From: Mobula hypostoma
Lineage: Eukaryota
Length of the DNA: 64,000 nucleotides
Direction of reading: 5' to 3'
Assembly: GCF_963921235.1 (NCBI RefSeq)
Contig: NC_086108.1
Coordinates: 20,150,001 to 20,214,000 of the forward strand
In this document: piece after piece, positions 30,676 to 46,096 of the stretch
How positions within the stretch are numbered: the first letter of the stretch is position 1
Layout of the letters: each line of letters opens with the position of its first letter
Notes under the pieces: model-generated
Told to the model about the DNA's origin: nothing
What the model saw: only the letters and a program-made list of their open reading frames with translations
Databases searched by the model: none
Program-made: the position numbers and the translations under genes

Positions 30676-33600
30676 CCATAAGACCATAAGACAAAGTAGC
30701 AGAAGTAGGCCATTCGGCCCATCGAGTCTGCTCCGCCATTTTATCATGAGCTGACCCATTTTATCCTATTTAGTCCCACTGCCCCGCCTTCTCACCATAA
30801 CCTTTGATGCCCTGGCTACTCAGATACCTATCAATCTCTGCCTTAAATACACCCAATGACTTGGCCTCCACTGCTGCCCGTGGCAACAAATTCCATACAT
30901 TCACCACCCTCTGACTAAAAAAATTTCTTCGCATTTCTGTTCTGAAGGGGGCGCCCTTCAATCCTGAAGTCATGCCCTCTCGTACTAGACTCCCCCATCA
31001 TGGGAAACAACTTTGCCACATCCACTCTGTCCATGCCCTTTAACATTCGAAATGTTTCTATGAGGTCTCCCCTCATTCTTCTAAACTCCAAGGAATACAG
31101 TCCAAGAGCAGACAAACGTTCCTCATATGTTAACCCTCTCATTCCCGGAATCATTCTAGTGAATCTTCTCTGTACCCTCTCCAACGTCAGTACATCCTTT
31201 CTTAAATAAGGAGACCAAAACTGCCCACAGTACTCCAAGTGAGGTCTCACTAGCGCCTTATAGAGCCTCAACATCACGTCCCTGCTCCGGCACAAAGTCT
31301 GGCCCTGTAGCTCAGAAGGATAGGGCAAGGAAGAGGAGGGCAGTTGTGATAGGGAACTCGATAGTAAGGGGGTCAGATAGGCGATTCTGTGGACGCAGTC
31401 CAGAGACCCGGATGGTAGTTTGCCTCCCTGGTGCCAGGGTCCGGGAAATTTCTGAGCATGTCCAAGTTATCCTGAAGTGGGAGGGTGAGGAGCCAGAGGT
31501 CATGGTACATATAGGTACCAATGACATAGGTAGGAAAAGGGATGAGGTCCTGAAAGGAGAATATAGGGAGCTAGGAAGGGAGTTGAGAAAAAGGACCGCA
31601 AAGGTAGTAATCTCGGGATTACTGCCTGTGCCACGCGACAGTGAGAGTAGGAATGCGATGAGGTGGAGGATAAATGCGTGGCTGAGGGATTGGAGCAGGG
31701 GGGCAGGGATTCAAGTTTTTGGATCATTGGGACCTCTTTTGGCGCAGGCGTGACCTGTACAAAAAGGACGGGTTACACTTGAATCCTAGGGGGACCAATA
31801 TCCTGGCAGGGAGATTAGCGAGGGCTACTGAGGTGACTTTAAACTAGAATGGTTGGGGGGTGGGAATCAAATTAAAGAGGCTAGGCGTGAGGAGGTTAGT
31901 TCACAACAGGGGGATGAGAACCAGTGCAGAGAGACAGATGGGTGTAAAGTGAGAGTAGAAGCAAAAAGTACTAAGGAGAAGAGTAAAAGTGGAAGGCTGA
32001 CAAATCCAGGGCAAGCATTAAAAAGGGCCACTTTTCAACATAATTGTATAAGGGCTAAGAGAGTTGTAAAAGAGTGCCTGAAGGCTTTGTGTGTCAATGC
32101 AAGGAGCATTCGTAATAAGGTGGATGAATTGAAAGTGCAGATTGTTAATAATGATTATGATATAGTTGGGATCACAGAGACATGGCTCCAGGGTGACCAA
32201 GGATGGGAGCTCAACGTTCAGGGATATTCAATATTCAGGAGGGATAGACATGAAGGAAGGGGAGTGGGGTGGCGTTGCTGGTTAAAGAAGAGATTAACGC
32301 AATAGAAAGGAAGGACATAAGCCGGGAAGATGTGGAATCGATATGGGTAGAGCTGCGTAACGCTAAGGGGCAGAAGACGCTGGTGGGAGTTGTGTACAGG
32401 CCACCTAACTGTAGTAGTGAGATGGTATTAAACAGGAAATTAGAAATGTGTGCAATAAAGGAACAGCAGTTATAATGGGTGACTTCAATCTACATGTAGA
32501 TTGGGTGAACCAAATTGGTAAAGGTGCTGAGGAAGAGGATTTCTTGGAATATATGAGGGATGGTTTTTTGAACCAACATGTCGAGGAACCAACTAGAGAG
32601 CAGGCTATTCTGGCCTGGGTTTTGAGCAATGAAGAAGGGTTAATTAGCAATCTTGCCGTGAGAGGCCCCTTGGGTAAGAGTGACCATAATATGGTGGAAT
32701 TCTTCATTAAGATGGAGAGTGACATAGTTAATTCAGAAACAAAGGTTCTGAACTTAAAGAGGGGTAACTTTGAAGGTATGAGACGTGAATTAGCTAAGAT
32801 AGACTGGCAAATGACACTTAAAGGATTGACGGTGGATATGCAATGGCAAGCATTTAAAGGTTGCATGGATGAACTACAACAATTGTTCATCCCAGTTTGG
32901 CAAAAGAATAAATCAAGGAAGGTAGTGCACCCGTGGCTGACAAGAGAAATTAGGGATAGTATCAATTCCAAAGAAGAAGCATACAAATTAGCCAGAGAAA
33001 GTGGCTCACCTGAGGACTGGGAGAAATTCAGAGTTCAGCAGAGGAGGACAAAGGGCTTAATTAGGAAGGGGAAAAAAGATTATGAGAGAAAACTGGTAGG
33101 GAACATAAAAACTGACTGTAAAAGCTTTTATAGATATGTAAAAAGGAAAAGACTGGTAAAGACAAATGTAGGTCCCCTGCAGACAGAAACAGGTGAATTG
33201 ATTATGGGGAGCAAGGACATGGCAGACCAATTGAATAATTACTTTGGTTCTGTCTTCACTAAGGAGGACATAAATAATCTTCCAGAAATAGTAGGGGACA
33301 GAGGGTCCAGTGAGATGGAGGAACTGAGCGAAATACTTGTTAGTAGGGAAGTGGTGTTAGGTAAATTGAAGGGATTGAAGGCAGATAAATCCCCAGGGCC
33401 AGATGGTCTGCATCCTAGACCGCTTAAGGAAGTAGCCCAAGAAATAGTGGATGCATTAGTGATAATTTTTCAAAACTCGTTAGATTCTGGACTAGTTCCT
33501 GAGGATTGGAGGGTGGCTAATGTAACCCCACTTTTTAAAAAAGGAGGGAGAGAGAAACCAGGGAACTATAGACCGGTTAGCCTAACGTCGGTGGTGGGGA

Positions 33601-36600
33601 AACTGCTGGAGTCAGTTATCAAAGATGTGACAACAGCACATTTGGAAAGCGGTGAGATCATCGGACAAAGTCAGCATGGATTTGTGAAAGGAAAGTCATG
33701 TCTGACGAATCTCATAGAATTTTTTGAGGATGTAACTAGTAGAGTGGATAGGGGAGAACCAGTGGATGTGGTATATTTGGATTTTCAAAAGGCTTTTGAC
33801 AAGGTCCCACACAGGAGATTAGTGTGCAAACTTAAAGCACACGGTATTGGGGGTAAGGTATTGATGTGGATGGAGAATTGGTTAGCAGACAGGAAGCAAA
33901 GAGTGGGAATAAACGGGACCTTTTCAGAATGGCAGGCGGTGACTAGTGGGGTACCGCAAGGCTCAGTGCTGGGACCCCAGTTGTTTACAATATATATTAA
34001 TGACTTGGATGAGGGAATTAAATGCAGCATCTCCAAGTTTGCGGATGACACGAAGCTGGGTGGCAGTGTTAGCTGTGAGGAGGATGCTAAGAGGATGCAG
34101 AGTGACTTGGATAGGTTGGGTGAGTGGGCAAATTCATGGCAGATGCAATTTAATGTGGATAAATGTGAAGTTATCCACTTTGGTGGCAAAAATAGGAAAA
34201 CAGATTATTATCTGAATGGTGGCCGATTCGGAAAAGGGGAGGTGCAACGAGACCGGGGTGTCATTATACACCAGTCATTGAAAGTGGGCATGCAGGTACA
34301 GCAGGCGGTGAAAAAGGCAAATGGTATGCTGGCATTCATAGCGAGAGGATTCGAGTACAGGAGCAGGGAGGTACTACTGCAGTTGTACAAGGCCTTGGTG
34401 AGACCACACCTGGAGTATTGTGTGCAGTTTTGGTCCCCTAATCTGAGGAAAGACATCCTTGCCATATAGGGAGTACAACGAAGGTTCACCAGATTGATTC
34501 CTGGGATGCCAGGACTTTCATATGAAGAAAGACTGGATGAACTGGGCTTGTACTCGTTGGAATTTAGAAGATTGAGGGGGGATCTGATTGAAACGTATAA
34601 AATCCTAAAGGGATTGGACAGGCTGGATGCAGGAAGATTGTTCCCGATGTTGGGGAAGTCCAGAACAAGGGGTCACAGTTTGAGGATAAAGGGGAAGCCT
34701 TTTAGGACCGAGATTAGGAAAAACTTCTTCACACAGAGAGTGGTGAATCTGTGGAATTCTCTGCCACAGGAAACAGTTGAGGCCAATTCATTGGCTATAT
34801 TTAAGAGGGAGTTAGATATGGCCCTTGTGGCTACGGGGATCAGGGGGTATGGAGGGAAGGCTGGGGTGGGGTTCTGAGTTGGATGATCAGCCATGATCAT
34901 AATAAATGGCGGTGCAGGCTCGAAGGGCCGAATGGCCTACTCCTGCACCTATTTTCTATGTTTCTATACTCTATTCCTCTAGAAATGAATGCCAACATTG
35001 CATTCGCCTTCTTCACTACCGATTCAACCTGGAGGTTAACTTTAAGGGAATCCTGTACGAGGACTCCCAAGTCCCGTTGCATCTCAGAACTTTGAATTCT
35101 TTCCCCATTTAAATAATAGTCTGCCCGTTTATTTTTTCTGCCAAAGTGCATAACCATACACTTTCCAACATTGTACTTCATTTGCCACTTCTCTGCCCAT
35201 TCTTCCAATCTATCCAAGTCTCTCTGCAGACTTTCCGTTTCCTCAGCACTACCAGCCCCTCCACCTATCTTCGTATCATCAGCAAACTTAGCCACAAAGC
35301 CATCTATTCCATATTCCAAATAGTTGATGTACAATGTAAAAAGAAGCAGTCCCAACACGGACCCCTGTGGAACACCACTGGTAACCGGCTGCCAACCAGA
35401 ATAGGATCCCTTTATTCCCACTCTCTGTTTCCTGCCAATCAGCCAACGCTCTATCCACGTATGTAACTTTCAAGTAATTCCATGGGCTCTTATCTTGTTA
35501 AGCAGCCTCATGTATGGCACCTTGTCAAAGGCCTTCTGAAAATCCAAATATACGACATCCACTGCATCTCCCTTGTCTAGCCTACTGGTAATTTCCTCAA
35601 AAAATTGTAATAGGTTTGTCAGGCAGGATTTTCCTTTAAGGAATCCATGCTGAGTTCTGCCTATCTTGTCATATGCCTCCAGGTACTCTGTAACCTCATC
35701 CTTGACAATCGACTCCAACAACTTCCCAACCACCGACGTCAAGCTATCAGGTCTATAATTTCCTTTTTGCTTCCTTGCCCCCTTCTTAAATAGCGGAGTG
35801 ACATTTGCAATCTTCCAGTCTTCCGGAACCATGCCAGAATCTATCAACTTTTGAAAGATCATCGCTAATGCCTCCGCAATCTCCACAGCTACTTCCTTCA
35901 GAACACGAGGGTGCATTCCATCTGGTCCGGGAGATTTATCGACCTTTAGCCTATTCAGCTTCCTGAGTACTTTCTCTGTCGTAATTGTGACTGCGCATAC
36001 TTCTCTTCCCTGCCACCCTTGAGTGACCGGTATCCTGCTATCTTCCTCAGTGAAGACTGATGCAAAATACTTGTTCAGTTCCTCTGCCATCTCCTCATCC
36101 CCCATTACAATTTCTCCAGTATCATTCTCTATCGGTCCTATATCTACTCTCACCTGTCCTTTACTCTTTATATAATTGAAAAAGCTTTTAGTATCCTCTT
36201 CGATATTATTTGCTAGTTTCCTTTCATAGTTAATCTTTTCTCTCTTAATGACCTTTTTGGTTTCCTTTTGTAAGCTTTTAAAGACTTCCCAATCCTCTGT
36301 CTTCCCACTAATTTTTGCTTCCTTGTATGCCCTCTCCTTAGCTTTAACTTTGGCTTTGACTTCTCTTGTCAACCACGGTTGCATCCTTTTTCCACTCGAA
36401 AATTTCTTCTTTTTTGGAATATACCTGTCTTGCACATTCCTCATTTCTCGCATAAACTCCAGCCACTGCTGCTCTGCCGTCTTTCCCGCCAGTGTCTCTT
36501 TCCAGTCAACTTTGGCCAGTTCCTCTCTCATGCCACTGTAGTTTCCTTTACTCCACTGAAACACCGACACATCAGATTTCGGCTTCTCTTTCTCTAATTT

Positions 36601-38110
36601 CACAGTGAACTCAATCATGTTATGATCACTGCCTCCTAAGGGTTCCTTCACCTCACTCTCTCCAATCACCTCCGGTTCATTACACAATACCCAATCCAGT
36701 ACAGCCGATCCCCTAGTGGGCTCAACAACAAGCTGTTCTAAAAAGCCATCTCGCAGACATTCTACAAATTCTCTCTGAGATCCAGTGCCGACCTGATTTT
36801 TCCAATCTACTCACATGTTAAAATCCCCCACAATTATCATAACACTGCCCTTCTGACAAGCCTTTTCTATTTCCAGTTGTAATTTGTAGTCCACATCCCT
36901 GCAGCTGTTTGGAGGCCTATAAATAACTGCCATCAGGGTCCTTTTACCCCTGCTATTCCTTAGCTCAACCCATAAAGATTCTGCAGCTTCCGATCCTATA
37001 TCACCTCTTTCTAATGATTTAATATCATTTCTTACCAATAAAGCCACGCCTCCCCCTCTGCCTACCTTCCTATCCTTCTGATACACCATGTATCCTTGGA
37101 CGTTCAGCTCCCAGAGACATGCATCCTTTAGCCAGGTCTCAGTGATGGCCACAATATCATACCTGCCAATCTGTAGCTGTACGACAAGATCATCCACTTT
37201 ATTTCTTATGCTGCGTGCATTTAAGTACAACACCTTAAGACCAGTATTTGATACTTTTTGCTTTGATTTCACTGCAACTCATCCCAATGGCTACACATTT
37301 GCCCCATCACCTGCCTGTCTTTCCTGACATCTTTACTGCTCACTATCTTAGATTTATTTCTGTTTTCCCCTTCCTCCGCTCTATCATTCCGGTTCCCATC
37401 CCCCTGCCAAATTAGTTTAAACCCTCCCTAACAGTTCTATTAAACTTTCCCGCCAGGATATTGGTCCCCTTCGGGTTCAGGTGTAACCCTTCCCCCAGAA
37501 GAGATCCCAATTATCCAAGAATCTGAAGCCCTGCCCCCTACACCAGTCTCTCAGCCAGGCATTCATCTGCCTGATCCGACTACTCTTGCCCTCGCTAGCA
37601 CGTGGTACAGGTAGCAATCCCGAGATTACTACCCTGGAGGTCCTGCTTCTTAGCTTTCTTCCTAACTCCTGGAAAACTCTCTTCAGGACCTCCTCCTTTG
37701 TCCTATCTATGTCATTGGTACCAACATGTACCAAGACAACTGGCTGCTCACTCTCCTCCTTTAGAATATTCAGGACCTGATCCAAGACATCCCGTACCTT
37801 GGCACCTGGGAGGCAACACACCATGCGGGTATCTCTGTCAGGCTCACAGAATCTCCTGTCTGTTCCCCTGGCTATGGAATCCCCCACAACTACCGCATTT
37901 CTCTTCACCCTCCTTCTCTCCTGCACAACAGCGCCAGGCTCAGTGCCAGAGACCCGGTCACCGTGGGCGTCCCCCGTCAGGTCATCCCCCTCAACAGCAT
38001 CCAGAACAAGATATTTGTTGCTGAGTGGGACAGCCACAGGGGTGCACTCCACTATCCGGGCATTTCCCTTCCCTCTCTTGACAGTGACCCAGTGTTCTGA
38101 CCCCTGTAGC
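30676..38110 (-). mobile_element. CR1 subfamily C (30676-31288 + 34968-38110), with esterase ORF1 part and ORF2, split by CR1-B
   Basis: CCATAAGA tail. The junction CTGCTCC|TATACTCTATTCC is contiguous in the copy at ~63135-63155. Motifs VGDSIARG and LYLNARSI. Confidence 0.9.
31289..34967 (+). mobile_element. Young CR1 subfamily B with ORF1 esterase half and near-complete ORF2 (few lesions)
   Basis: ORFs 31346-31753, 31853-32305, 32448-34469 (673 aa) and 34494-34877; (TTTCTATG)n tail. Confidence 0.95.
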
Positions 38111-38474
38111 CTTGGACATGATCTGAAACATCCCAGACCCCAGCACCTGGGAGGCAAACTACCATCCGAGTTTCTTTCCTGCGTCCACAGAATCACCTGA
38201 CCCCCCTAACTATAGAGTCCCCTATCACTATTGCTTTCCTCTTCCTTTCCCTACCCTTCTGAGCCACAGGGCCAGAATCTGTGCCAGAGGCACAGACACT
38301 GTTGCTTCAGGTCTTAGGTAGGCTGTCTCCCCCAACAGTACTTAAACAGGAATACTTATTGTCAAGGGGTACAGCCACAGGGGTACTCTCTAGTACCTGA
38401 CTCTTCCCCTTCCCTCTCCTGACTGTTACCCACTTATCTGTCTCCCGTGGCCCCGGTGTGACCAACTGCCTATA

Positions 38475-39020
38475 GAGGTGTATGGGGTGTCAGGGAGGGG
38501 TAGCAACTCTGGTGGAGGAACATGTCACGTCCTTTTCAAGGTGGTTAGTCCACCTTTGGTCCCCACCTGGCACTCGGCTCTCACCTGTGGCTCCTCGTAG
38601 CTGTTTGCATGCGACAGCAGCCACACCCCGGGTAATGGCTTCGACAAGCCAGCTAAACCAGGTGAGGGTAGCCGATGGGTCTCAAACCCTCGGTGAGATA
38701 GGGAGTTGTCTATCCCAGCATGTGAAGCCAGACTCCGGCGGATTGAGCGGACGAGACCAATGGAAGGTCCAACGGTCAAGAAGGCAGTCTCTGCAAACAT
38801 TGTGGAACGTGTAGAGCCCGACAAGACACAGAAGACATCCTGGTCATCCACTGCGCCTCGTCCCATCTCCAGCTGTCTCGACTCTATCTTGCCACTGGAT
38901 CCAGATGGGAATTGGGAAAAGAGAATGAGGCTCTCCCTCACTTAAATCCAAATCATGCGCTAGTCTCAACACCATCAATGGTGTCGAGGTCTTCATCGAC
39001 GACGACGATGGACGAACATG
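38475..39020 (+). mobile_element. ~546-bp non-coding RTE-like non-autonomous retroelement inserted in CR1-D2 ORF1
   Basis: The host CR1 reads CTGCCTATA|ACTCCTTTC across it (ATA repeated at both junctions). 5' HDV-like fold; 3' hairpins CTCAACACC/GGTGTCGAG and TTCATCG/CGATGGA. Confidence 0.75.
38484..38675 (+). ncRNA. HDV-like self-cleaving ribozyme (predicted; cleavage 5' of G38484, catalytic C38653)
   Basis: P1 GGGGTGT(38484-90)/ACACCCC(38623-29); P2 TCGGCT-CTCACCTG(38574-87)/CAGGTGAG..AGCCGA(38659-75); P3 GGC/GCC; L3 TCCTCG; P1.1 CC/GG(38630-31); P4 TGGCTT/AAGCCA; J4/2 GCTAA. Confidence 0.8.
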
Positions 39021-39399
39021 ATAACTCCTTTCTATCACCTCCTCGCTCTCCCTGACCAGACGAAGGTCATTGAGCTGCAACTCCAGTTCCCTACCGCGGT
39101 CCCTTAGGAGCTGCAGCTCGACACACCGGGTGCAGATATGGCCATCCGGCAGGCTGGGAGACTCCAGGACCTCCCACATCTGACACCGAGCACAGAACAC
39201 CAGTTTCACACACATACTTCCTTTCCGCAATTGACACAGGTAACCTACCTAGCCTTATTACCGCATAAGCCCGCTGAGCCAAAGCCCTATCACTCTGCCA
39301 CCTCTTATTCCGCTACCTGCTACAAACGCTGCCTGCTGGATATGGCGGTCTTCTTTTTAAACATTTCCCGCTCTACTGGCTGATGTCATGCGCCTAGCC

Positions 39400-44438: not shown

Positions 44439-44673
44439 TTATTTTAAGTGAGTTAACTGCATTCTATCTTCCACTAGCACAGTGTCTGTGCCAAATTGTT
44501 CAATGCACTGCTTGATAGTTGTGATGACACTCATTAACCGTCGATCCATTGCCTCCAAATGGGCATCTGTTAAAATAGGGCTAATAGGATCATGTGACAT
44601 GGCAGTTCGCATTGCTGCACTGAGAACTCCATTCTTTAGGTAATTTAACCTGTTCCAGGTAGACACTCTAATA
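44439..44673 (-). CDS. FAM20B: Glycosaminoglycan xylosylkinase, last coding exon
   Basis: Acceptor CTTACAG, then (I)[46 protein letters not shown]...[13 protein letters not shown]. Matches the FAM20B C-terminus as recalled. Confidence 0.95.
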
Positions 44674-46096
44674 CTGTAAGAAAGATAGATCTAGGTCAAA
44701 ACAAGACATAGTGAAAACAATTTATAAAAACTATGCAATAACCAGTTTTGAGCATGAATGATGCAGAAATGAGAATTTAAACAGAGTGAAAATGCACAAT
44801 ACACACAAATATAATTGGAAAAATAACTTTTCACAGTAGTTTTTGCCATTTTTAATAAGAATGCACACTGTAAATTATTGTTATGCAAAGTCAAAATTCA
44901 TTTTGCAGTTTTCACTTCCAACTTTAAATAGATCACTCTCTTGCATCTGAGAATTACTTCTTTTGAGTGACATTGAAGGGTGAATCTGCAACATCATGAA
45001 TTGGCATCATTAACTGATACCAGGAACTGGGTGAGAGAGAGCCTCTGATAAAATTCATATCTGATTATTGCTCTGCATGTTTCCCAAATGCATTTTATTA
45101 AGTGTGTGTTGAGTTCGGTAACACACAACACCTAAAGAAAAGTTTTTTCTTTTACCTAAAGAAAAGTTTTCTTTTCTTTAGGTATCTTCTTCAAATACAA
45201 TCCTCTGCCAGGTTGCTCCTGCAAGTTACCTAAGCTCTACACGAATTCAGATACACATTCATTGTTTCCTACAGCTCTCATAAGAAGGCAATTTAATTCT
45301 GGTTGATAGTACAAGATTCTAAATATAGTGGATTTCAGTTAATTGGTCATCAGTTAATCAGAGTACCCCTGTGGCCATCCCCCTCAACAACAGGTATATA
45401 TATCACTGGTTTTGTCTTGGGTGTGAATTTGACTATTTCTTCAATAATTGAATAATCACTGTTTACTGTTGTAGGAGTAAGCTATACACTGATATGGTTG
45501 AAACATTTCACCAATTTCAGTAACTGATCCATGAAAAAATAGCTTTTTCAGTGAGCACAACGAATTGAAAAGCTTATACTGCATTGATGACGCTATTAGT
45601 CAACACATTCTTTGTAAGATTTTTCCAACATAAACATAAAATAAATCAAATCGGAACAACAATTTAGAAAAAAAACTCCTGCTCGATCACTTAGCTTTGC
45701 ACTAAAGTAGAAGGCAGCCTAATTTAAACCTCTAGAATGCCAATTCTGAATGGGACATCATGAACTGGAGCTCCAGTGTACTTCTACACATTGGATAGTA
45801 TCAGAGCAATGCTGAGATAATAGAGACAAACCCACAAAGTACCACTCTGCAGAGTTTAGCACTGAGCTTCTGAAAGGCATCTATAATACTGAGTTAATTA
45901 CACAAACAGCTCTGATGTTTTGACAGTTGTGGATACAAAGGAAGTATGCCACCAATGCAACATAATTTTTACTTTTCAGGAAGACATCTACTTTAACGTT
46001 TCAACAAAAATCAGGAATGGTATTCTAAAGCAACAGAGTAATTCACAGATTAGCAGTCAATATTTAAAGGCAACCTTTGGTAACTCATGTACTTAC

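Follow-up and report, generated by a model that had tools for sequence, protein, structure and literature searches.

The hairpin at positions 38600-38618 of the window (the whole stretch of 64,000 nucleotides of Mobula hypostoma contig NC_086108.1 that was analysed, read on the forward strand) is probably an inherited 6-bp helix in L3 of a predicted HDV-like ribozyme. As a tolerated add-on, it would stabilise the short P3 of a ribozyme cutting the RNA of its element free at 38475. The predicted fold (38475-38666) was located at the 5' end of a presumably RTE-derived element of approximately 545 bp without a protein ORF. From its letters, the fold is predicted to be a variant and not a canonical HDV-like ribozyme.

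The sequence contains the conserved core letters and could form P1, P1.1, P2, P3 and P4 in the order of the nested HDV double pseudoknot; all parts are given on the forward strand. The 5' strand of P1 occupies 38475-38481, with cleavage predicted just 5' of G38475 and with A38476 mismatched in the window copy. J1/2 (38482-38575) starts with a 3-nt linker (38482-38484), followed by a long P1.2-like helical domain (38485-38575) that was assigned by RNAalifold and minimum free energy folding; many of its pairs were changed on both sides in the RNAalifold analysis of 6 sequences. According to the HDV layout, 38580-38591 contains the 5' strands of P2 (38580-38588) and P3 (38589-38591). The canonical part of L3 (38592-38599) was assigned by pattern match and holds the U20 equivalent (38592), the CC of P1.1 (38593-38594) and the G25 equivalent (38597). 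Behind the hairpin inserted on the 3' side of L3, the stretch 38620-38631 comprises the 3' strands of P3 (38620-38622) and P1 (38623-38629) and the GG of P1.1 (38630-38631). The P4 hairpin (38636-38651) and J4/2 with the predicted catalytic C38653 cover 38636-38656, and the 3' strand of P2 with the bulged C38658 covers 38657-38666. The HDV position names U20, G25 and C75 were applied to window letters that we take to be equivalent. The roles of the L3 U-G pair and of the catalytic C are treated in PMC6326823 and PMC3774820 (both in part). The bulged C follows one U-A pair (38588/38657) at the base of P2, and was kept in all five families compared, i.e. the window family and those of the relatives L176, L190, L201 and L115.

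L3 comprises 28 nt (38592-38619): the seven canonical letters, an A, the hairpin and another A. The stem consists of 6 bp (five Watson-Crick pairs and one U-G) and closes a 7-nt loop with CATG at 38608-38611; its folding energy is -5.2 kcal/mol. The letters and coordinates of the hairpin in the initial annotation were correct, and its stem of 6-7 bp was fixed at six pairs, without a seventh. In canonical HDV-like ribozymes L3 has 7-8 nt; the L3 of the window is longer, and its first 7 nt fit. In the families with an L3 hairpin, L3 measures 26-29 nt.

It had been proposed that the hairpin is a structural variant, unless it was private to this copy. It is not private. An exact pattern search of the genome yielded 2006 matches with an insert of 19-23 nt versus one with a shorter insert of 1-10 nt, which was a deletion derivative; reversed control patterns yielded 0 matches in the genome. 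All six hairpin pairs were kept in 119 of 133 distinct genome copies, which is weak evidence of constraint because this reflects identity by descent and not selection. A metagenome pattern, in which the core was fixed and the insert was free, matched at least 119 loci, and the matches listed included the four distant relatives. Strong BLAST matches identified L176 and L190; L201 (E=2e-6) and L115 (E=0.015) were identified by weak BLAST matches plus pairing of P1 and P2. The predicted ribozyme of L115 leads into an ORF with 39-53% identity to the N-terminal part of the ORF of an RTE-type LINE from this genome. Across the five families, 27 of 27 aligned hairpin cells paired and four of the six pairs were changed on both sides, a value reached by 1 of 500 shuffles; a hand alignment without the MAFFT gaps gave 29 of 30 paired cells, with the one mismatch in L190. 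The outside sequences behind these counts are four, with one copy each, and the shuffle control ignores relatedness. By this alignment, compensatory changes show that the hairpin has been kept, and the structural variant is both family-wide and common to distant RTE-type relatives. Pattern searches of viral contigs gave 23, 1 and 0 matches, none with an L3 hairpin, and those of prokaryote genomes gave 0 and 27 matches, none of them a relative; the patterns used for both covered one P3 type only. A scan of the viral contigs for RTE proteins confirmed 0 of 9.

The core helices were evaluated in the same manner. P1 formed 7 of 7 pairs in L020 (a near-majority copy), L176, L201 and L115, and 6 of 7 in the window copy and L190. 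In the core helices of the 6 sequences, 93% of 142 cells paired and 6 of 24 pairs were changed on both sides, which exceeded all 500 shuffles; one of the P1 changes is due to an alignment slip in L115, and one of the P4 changes to CpG decay in the window copy. P2 covaries, with double-sided changes in L201 and L115. T38592 was present in all 133 distinct genome copies and G38597 in 129 of them; many of the copies had been selected on those letters. C38653 is present in the window copy as part of CNRA in J4/2. The invariance of P3, P1.1, the L3 U and G, the GGGCAAC stretch and J4/2 in the relatives is circular, because all of these were fixed by the search pattern. An alternative register with a 4-bp P3 and a 6-bp P1 fits L190 better; it removes the P2 bulge and accounts for the P1 mismatch of L190.

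Folding of the whole 201-nt region gave a z-score of only -1.49. Pseudoknot-free folding favoured a P3-like helix of 6-7 bp that captures the 3' strand of P1, and the hairpin was shifted in the window copy. In the pseudoknot-free ensemble, the pair probability of the hairpin was 0.06-0.09 in the window copy, 0.32-0.45 in L020 and 0.26-0.95 in the four relatives. Nearest-neighbour energies of P3 plus L3 were -7.3 to -9.7 kcal/mol if the hairpin forms, -3.7 kcal/mol for an 8-nt loop and -1.6 to -1.7 kcal/mol if the insert stays open; these values include the energy of the hairpin itself and ignore the pseudoknot.

The predicted cut site coincides with the 5' boundary of the element. In 78 anchored copies of 138, conservation rose from 0.33-0.51 to 0.76-0.97 at 38475. 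Two GGGGTGT-type motifs, 9 nt apart, are present at the element start, and L176 has a compensatory change at P1 position 2 that involves the first motif only. This double change identifies the first motif as P1, and thus places the predicted cut at the 5' end of the element. The second motif (38484-38490) would pair perfectly as the 5' strand of P1 in the window copy; it was rejected, as the family boundary is at 38475, L176 covaries with the first motif only and the second one opens the J1/2 domain. A family 5' end at the predicted G1 is what would be expected if cleavage set the 5' end of the copied RNA; as a sign of cleavage it is indirect. Between 38475 and 38740 the window copy carries 12 departures from the majority, plus 38476; among them are the P1 mismatch and a change in the second J1.1/4 letter. 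Because of these two changes the predicted ribozyme of the window copy is probably slow, weak or dead. In R2 ribozymes, P1 mismatches were accompanied by loss of activity (PMC3774820, in part).

The element (38475-39018, forward strand) was delimited by copy ends, tails and likeness by eye as a short ORF-less retroelement that probably consists of the 5' UTR and the 3' end of an RTE-type LINE, i.e. a putative bipartite non-autonomous LINE. A 251-nt query retrieved 3780 first-look candidates in the 3.5-Gb genome, of which 40 were scored and 30 fetched. The 5' end was common to all 30 fetched copies; 28 of the 30 aligned up to element position ~540-550 and ended in a CAA/CA tail, and 14 of the 30 had repeats of 9-14 nt in both flanks. 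The flank repeat of the window copy measures only about 3 nt. The longest internal frame (82 aa) had no Pfam match. By eye, both halves of the element are similar to the terminal regions of RTE-3_AMi and WALLSI (PMC5786205 supplement, in part). L176 shares the 5' part of the element (76% over 460 columns) and then continues. An inverted repeat (38965-38988, forward strand) is present in the sequence at the presumed joint of the two LINE-derived halves; in the same supplement, the ends of RTE-3_AMi that correspond to its arms are complementary by eye. Pattern searches for divergent subfamilies in this genome gave 25 and 40 matches, all of the same family.

The Mobula hypostoma genome yielded no autonomous partner sharing the ends of the element; junction patterns gave 11 and 12 matches, all of them either short elements or copies with rearrangements. 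A second, abundant RTE-type LINE family of this genome (L055-L073) has a 5' end that is structured differently and lacks an HDV core. It was rejected as the partner, since it shares no DNA with the element and showed no convincing HDV core in 19 loci (150 of 4032 candidates were scored). Locus L024 has a copy of the short element within the endonuclease region of this second family. The ORF N-terminus of the second family shows about 40-50% identity to the ORF that follows the L115 hairpin ribozyme. Judged from such sequences, 5' modules may have been exchanged. Twister-type motifs are also mentioned at RTE 5' ends (PMC7761336, in part). The window copy interrupts ORF1 of a CR1-like LINE on the opposite strand. 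Nested pieces of CR1-like LINEs (RVT_1, endonuclease, GDSL/SGNH ORF1) were observed on both strands of window positions 32400-39250, and an exon of a FAM20-family kinase gene (PF06702, E=1.7e-18) was observed at 44442-44690 on the reverse strand.

It had also been suggested that descriptors with a fixed L3 miss this variant. The loose-P4 HDV descriptor for RNArobo fixes L3 at 7 nt, allows up to 51 nt in J1/2 and demands a perfect 6-bp P2 (PMC4870747 supplement, in part). In the descriptor test the first seven L3 letters matched, P3 failed to close after them, and J1/2 measured 98 nt versus 51. The published descriptor cannot match because L3 is fixed at 7 nt; the suggestion is correct in this respect, but L3 is not the sole cause, as the long J1/2 and the P2 bulge also prevent a match. 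Rfam searches gave no ribozyme family match for the window region at E values up to 1, and none for five L3-hairpin loci at E values up to 5. As positive control, the canonical phage example L033 matched RF02682 (E=1.5e-4, below the gathering score). L033 and two further loci on viral or phage contigs (L035, L046) are canonical HDV-like ribozymes with a 7-nt L3 that passed the descriptor. Both the published descriptor and Rfam thus miss the L3-hairpin form, and the expectation that a ribozyme subclass may be under-counted was supported. No L3 helix in HDV-like ribozymes was found in the literature searched; the figures or supplements of Ruminski 2011 or Webb may draw one. As far as could be checked, the L3-hairpin form is new among HDV-like ribozymes.

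Other readings of the hairpin were weighed against these data. That it is a chance structure within a repeat, free of constraint, is very improbable. Short GC-rich inserts do fold often, since 26 of 68 such chance inserts among the matches listed reached -5 kcal/mol or better, so that the energies of the relatives are unexceptional, and copies within one genome are not independent. The place of closure is a better discriminator: among the matches listed, a stem of 5-7 bp closed at the same place in 4 of 4 relatives versus 2 of 115 chance matches, or 2 of 68 if chance inserts of at least 17 nt are considered. Together with the four of six pairs changed on both sides, this largely refutes a chance origin. 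A damped or dead relic, with a core slowed or blocked by the insert and a hairpin preserved for some other function (RTE protein binding, internal promoter, translation start), is quite unlikely. It agrees with the lack of an L3 helix in the literature searched on HDV-like ribozymes, with the position of L3 in the catalytic core (PMC4908430, in part), with the alternative pairings that dominate pseudoknot-free folding, and with reports that HDV-like 5' modules double as promoter or IRES (PMC6765202 and PMC3383444, both in part). However, P1 and P2 covary across the families, and the family 5' end is exactly at the predicted G1.

The loop offers a further reading, in which the hairpin is a docking arm. 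Its CAT(G) would pair with a downstream CATG (38719-38722, forward strand, 40-61 nt behind P2 in all five families) or with the P1 linker (38481-38484), and the third pseudoknot so formed would tune or switch cleavage; alternatively, the palindromic loop would kiss a second RNA. We regard this as unlikely. CATG is the sole 4-mer common to all five inserts, though stems and loop lengths differ. In four of the five families no site within ~330 nt forms a better duplex with the loop 8-mer than the downstream one, where contiguous pairing spans 9, 6, 9, 5 and 4 bp across the five. One flank change, in L201, is double-sided, the ATG of the linker is kept in four of five families, and the window family, L176 and L190 each have a perfectly palindromic loop 6-mer. 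However, CATG never varies and thus provides no covariation, three other 4-mers are also common downstream (at 57-79% identity), and L115 favours a partner in J1/2, its downstream pairing being limited to 4 bp. In L201 and L115 the stem includes the G of CATG, the three candidate partners are about equally good, the partner that RNAalifold assigns to the downstream site is the 5' linker, and the palindromes could simply reflect an extended stem. Pairing of the loop with a CATG in J1/2 at about 38521 was rejected, as this motif is missing in L176 and L201. In the window family, L176 and L190, the downstream CATG belongs to an ATG-TGA start-stop (window 38720-38725). It is distinctly unlikely that an RTE lineage has an active triple-pseudoknot HDV-like ribozyme in which the CAT(G) loop of the L3 helix docks on the P1 linker or on the site 50 nt downstream (AUG-UGA in three families) and couples self-cleavage to RNA folding or translation. 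If true, this would be the first peripheral contact made through a loop in HDV-like ribozymes.

The inherited add-on helix is retained as the preferred reading. The insert starts after the letters needed for P1.1 and the L3 U-G pair, so that the core can be kept. Its position in L3 is presumably solvent-exposed, and the helix would be directed away from the active site. Pairing of the insert would turn a costly 28-nt L3 loop into a helix and stabilise P3. The element probably has no promoter of its own, and its RNA would be released from read-through transcripts by self-cleavage, as in other non-LTR elements; the proteins of a partner LINE would then copy the released RNA via its 3' end. A passive helix leaves the invariant CATG of the loop unaccounted for. 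In search patterns L3 is treated as a core loop of fixed length, and here a conserved natural helix was found in it. Thousands of genomic copies of the predicted ribozyme and several RTE lineages are invisible to the descriptor and to Rfam. HDV-type ribozymes might tolerate a grafted domain at the site of the insert. The presumed role of HDV-like ribozymes for retrotransposons is unchanged by the hairpin.

HDV-like ribozymes are situated at the 5' ends of the non-LTR retrotransposons RTE, R2, R4 and L1Tc/Ingi (PMC5786205, PMC3774820 and PMC6765202, each in part). The predicted ribozyme is like them in the double pseudoknot, the L3 U and G, the catalytic C of J4/2, the cut at the element 5' end and the long J1/2. 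Unlike them, the L3-hairpin families have an L3 that contains a helix and measures 26-29 nt rather than 7-8 nt, plus the bulged C of P2; figures in Ruminski 2011 may show such an L3. The core motif is the same as in the HDV, CPEB3 and HDV-F-prausnitzii (RF02682) ribozymes of Rfam and in phage theta ribozymes (PMC10879173, in part); in contrast to the Rfam HDV, CPEB3 and RF02682 families, the L3-hairpin form has no ribozyme family match. Bipartite non-autonomous RTE LINEs are described in PMC5786205 (in part), which cites ribozymes at RTE 5' ends. The window element resembles those of them in the sections compared (WALLSI3/RTESINE2, RTE-N2_Lch, Bov-A) and the RTE-3_AMi / RTE-1_PSi lineage in its putative RTE LINE 5' part and 3' end (a likeness by eye), the lack of an ORF and the microsatellite tail. 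It differs in that it has no tRNA head and no autonomous partner found in the genome, and the ribozyme part is absent from the supplement passages compared. The large structured J1/2 (P1.2) domain and the extended P2 are shared with drz-Agam-2-1 (PMC4908430, in part), where both speed cleavage. According to the same portion of that paper, tertiary stabilisation by peripheral domains had not previously been proposed for the HDV-like family; the L3 helix offers a test for such contacts. In drz-Agam-2-1 the peripheral domain is located in J1/2 and that portion of the paper mentions no L3 helix, whereas the extra helix of the window is located in L3.
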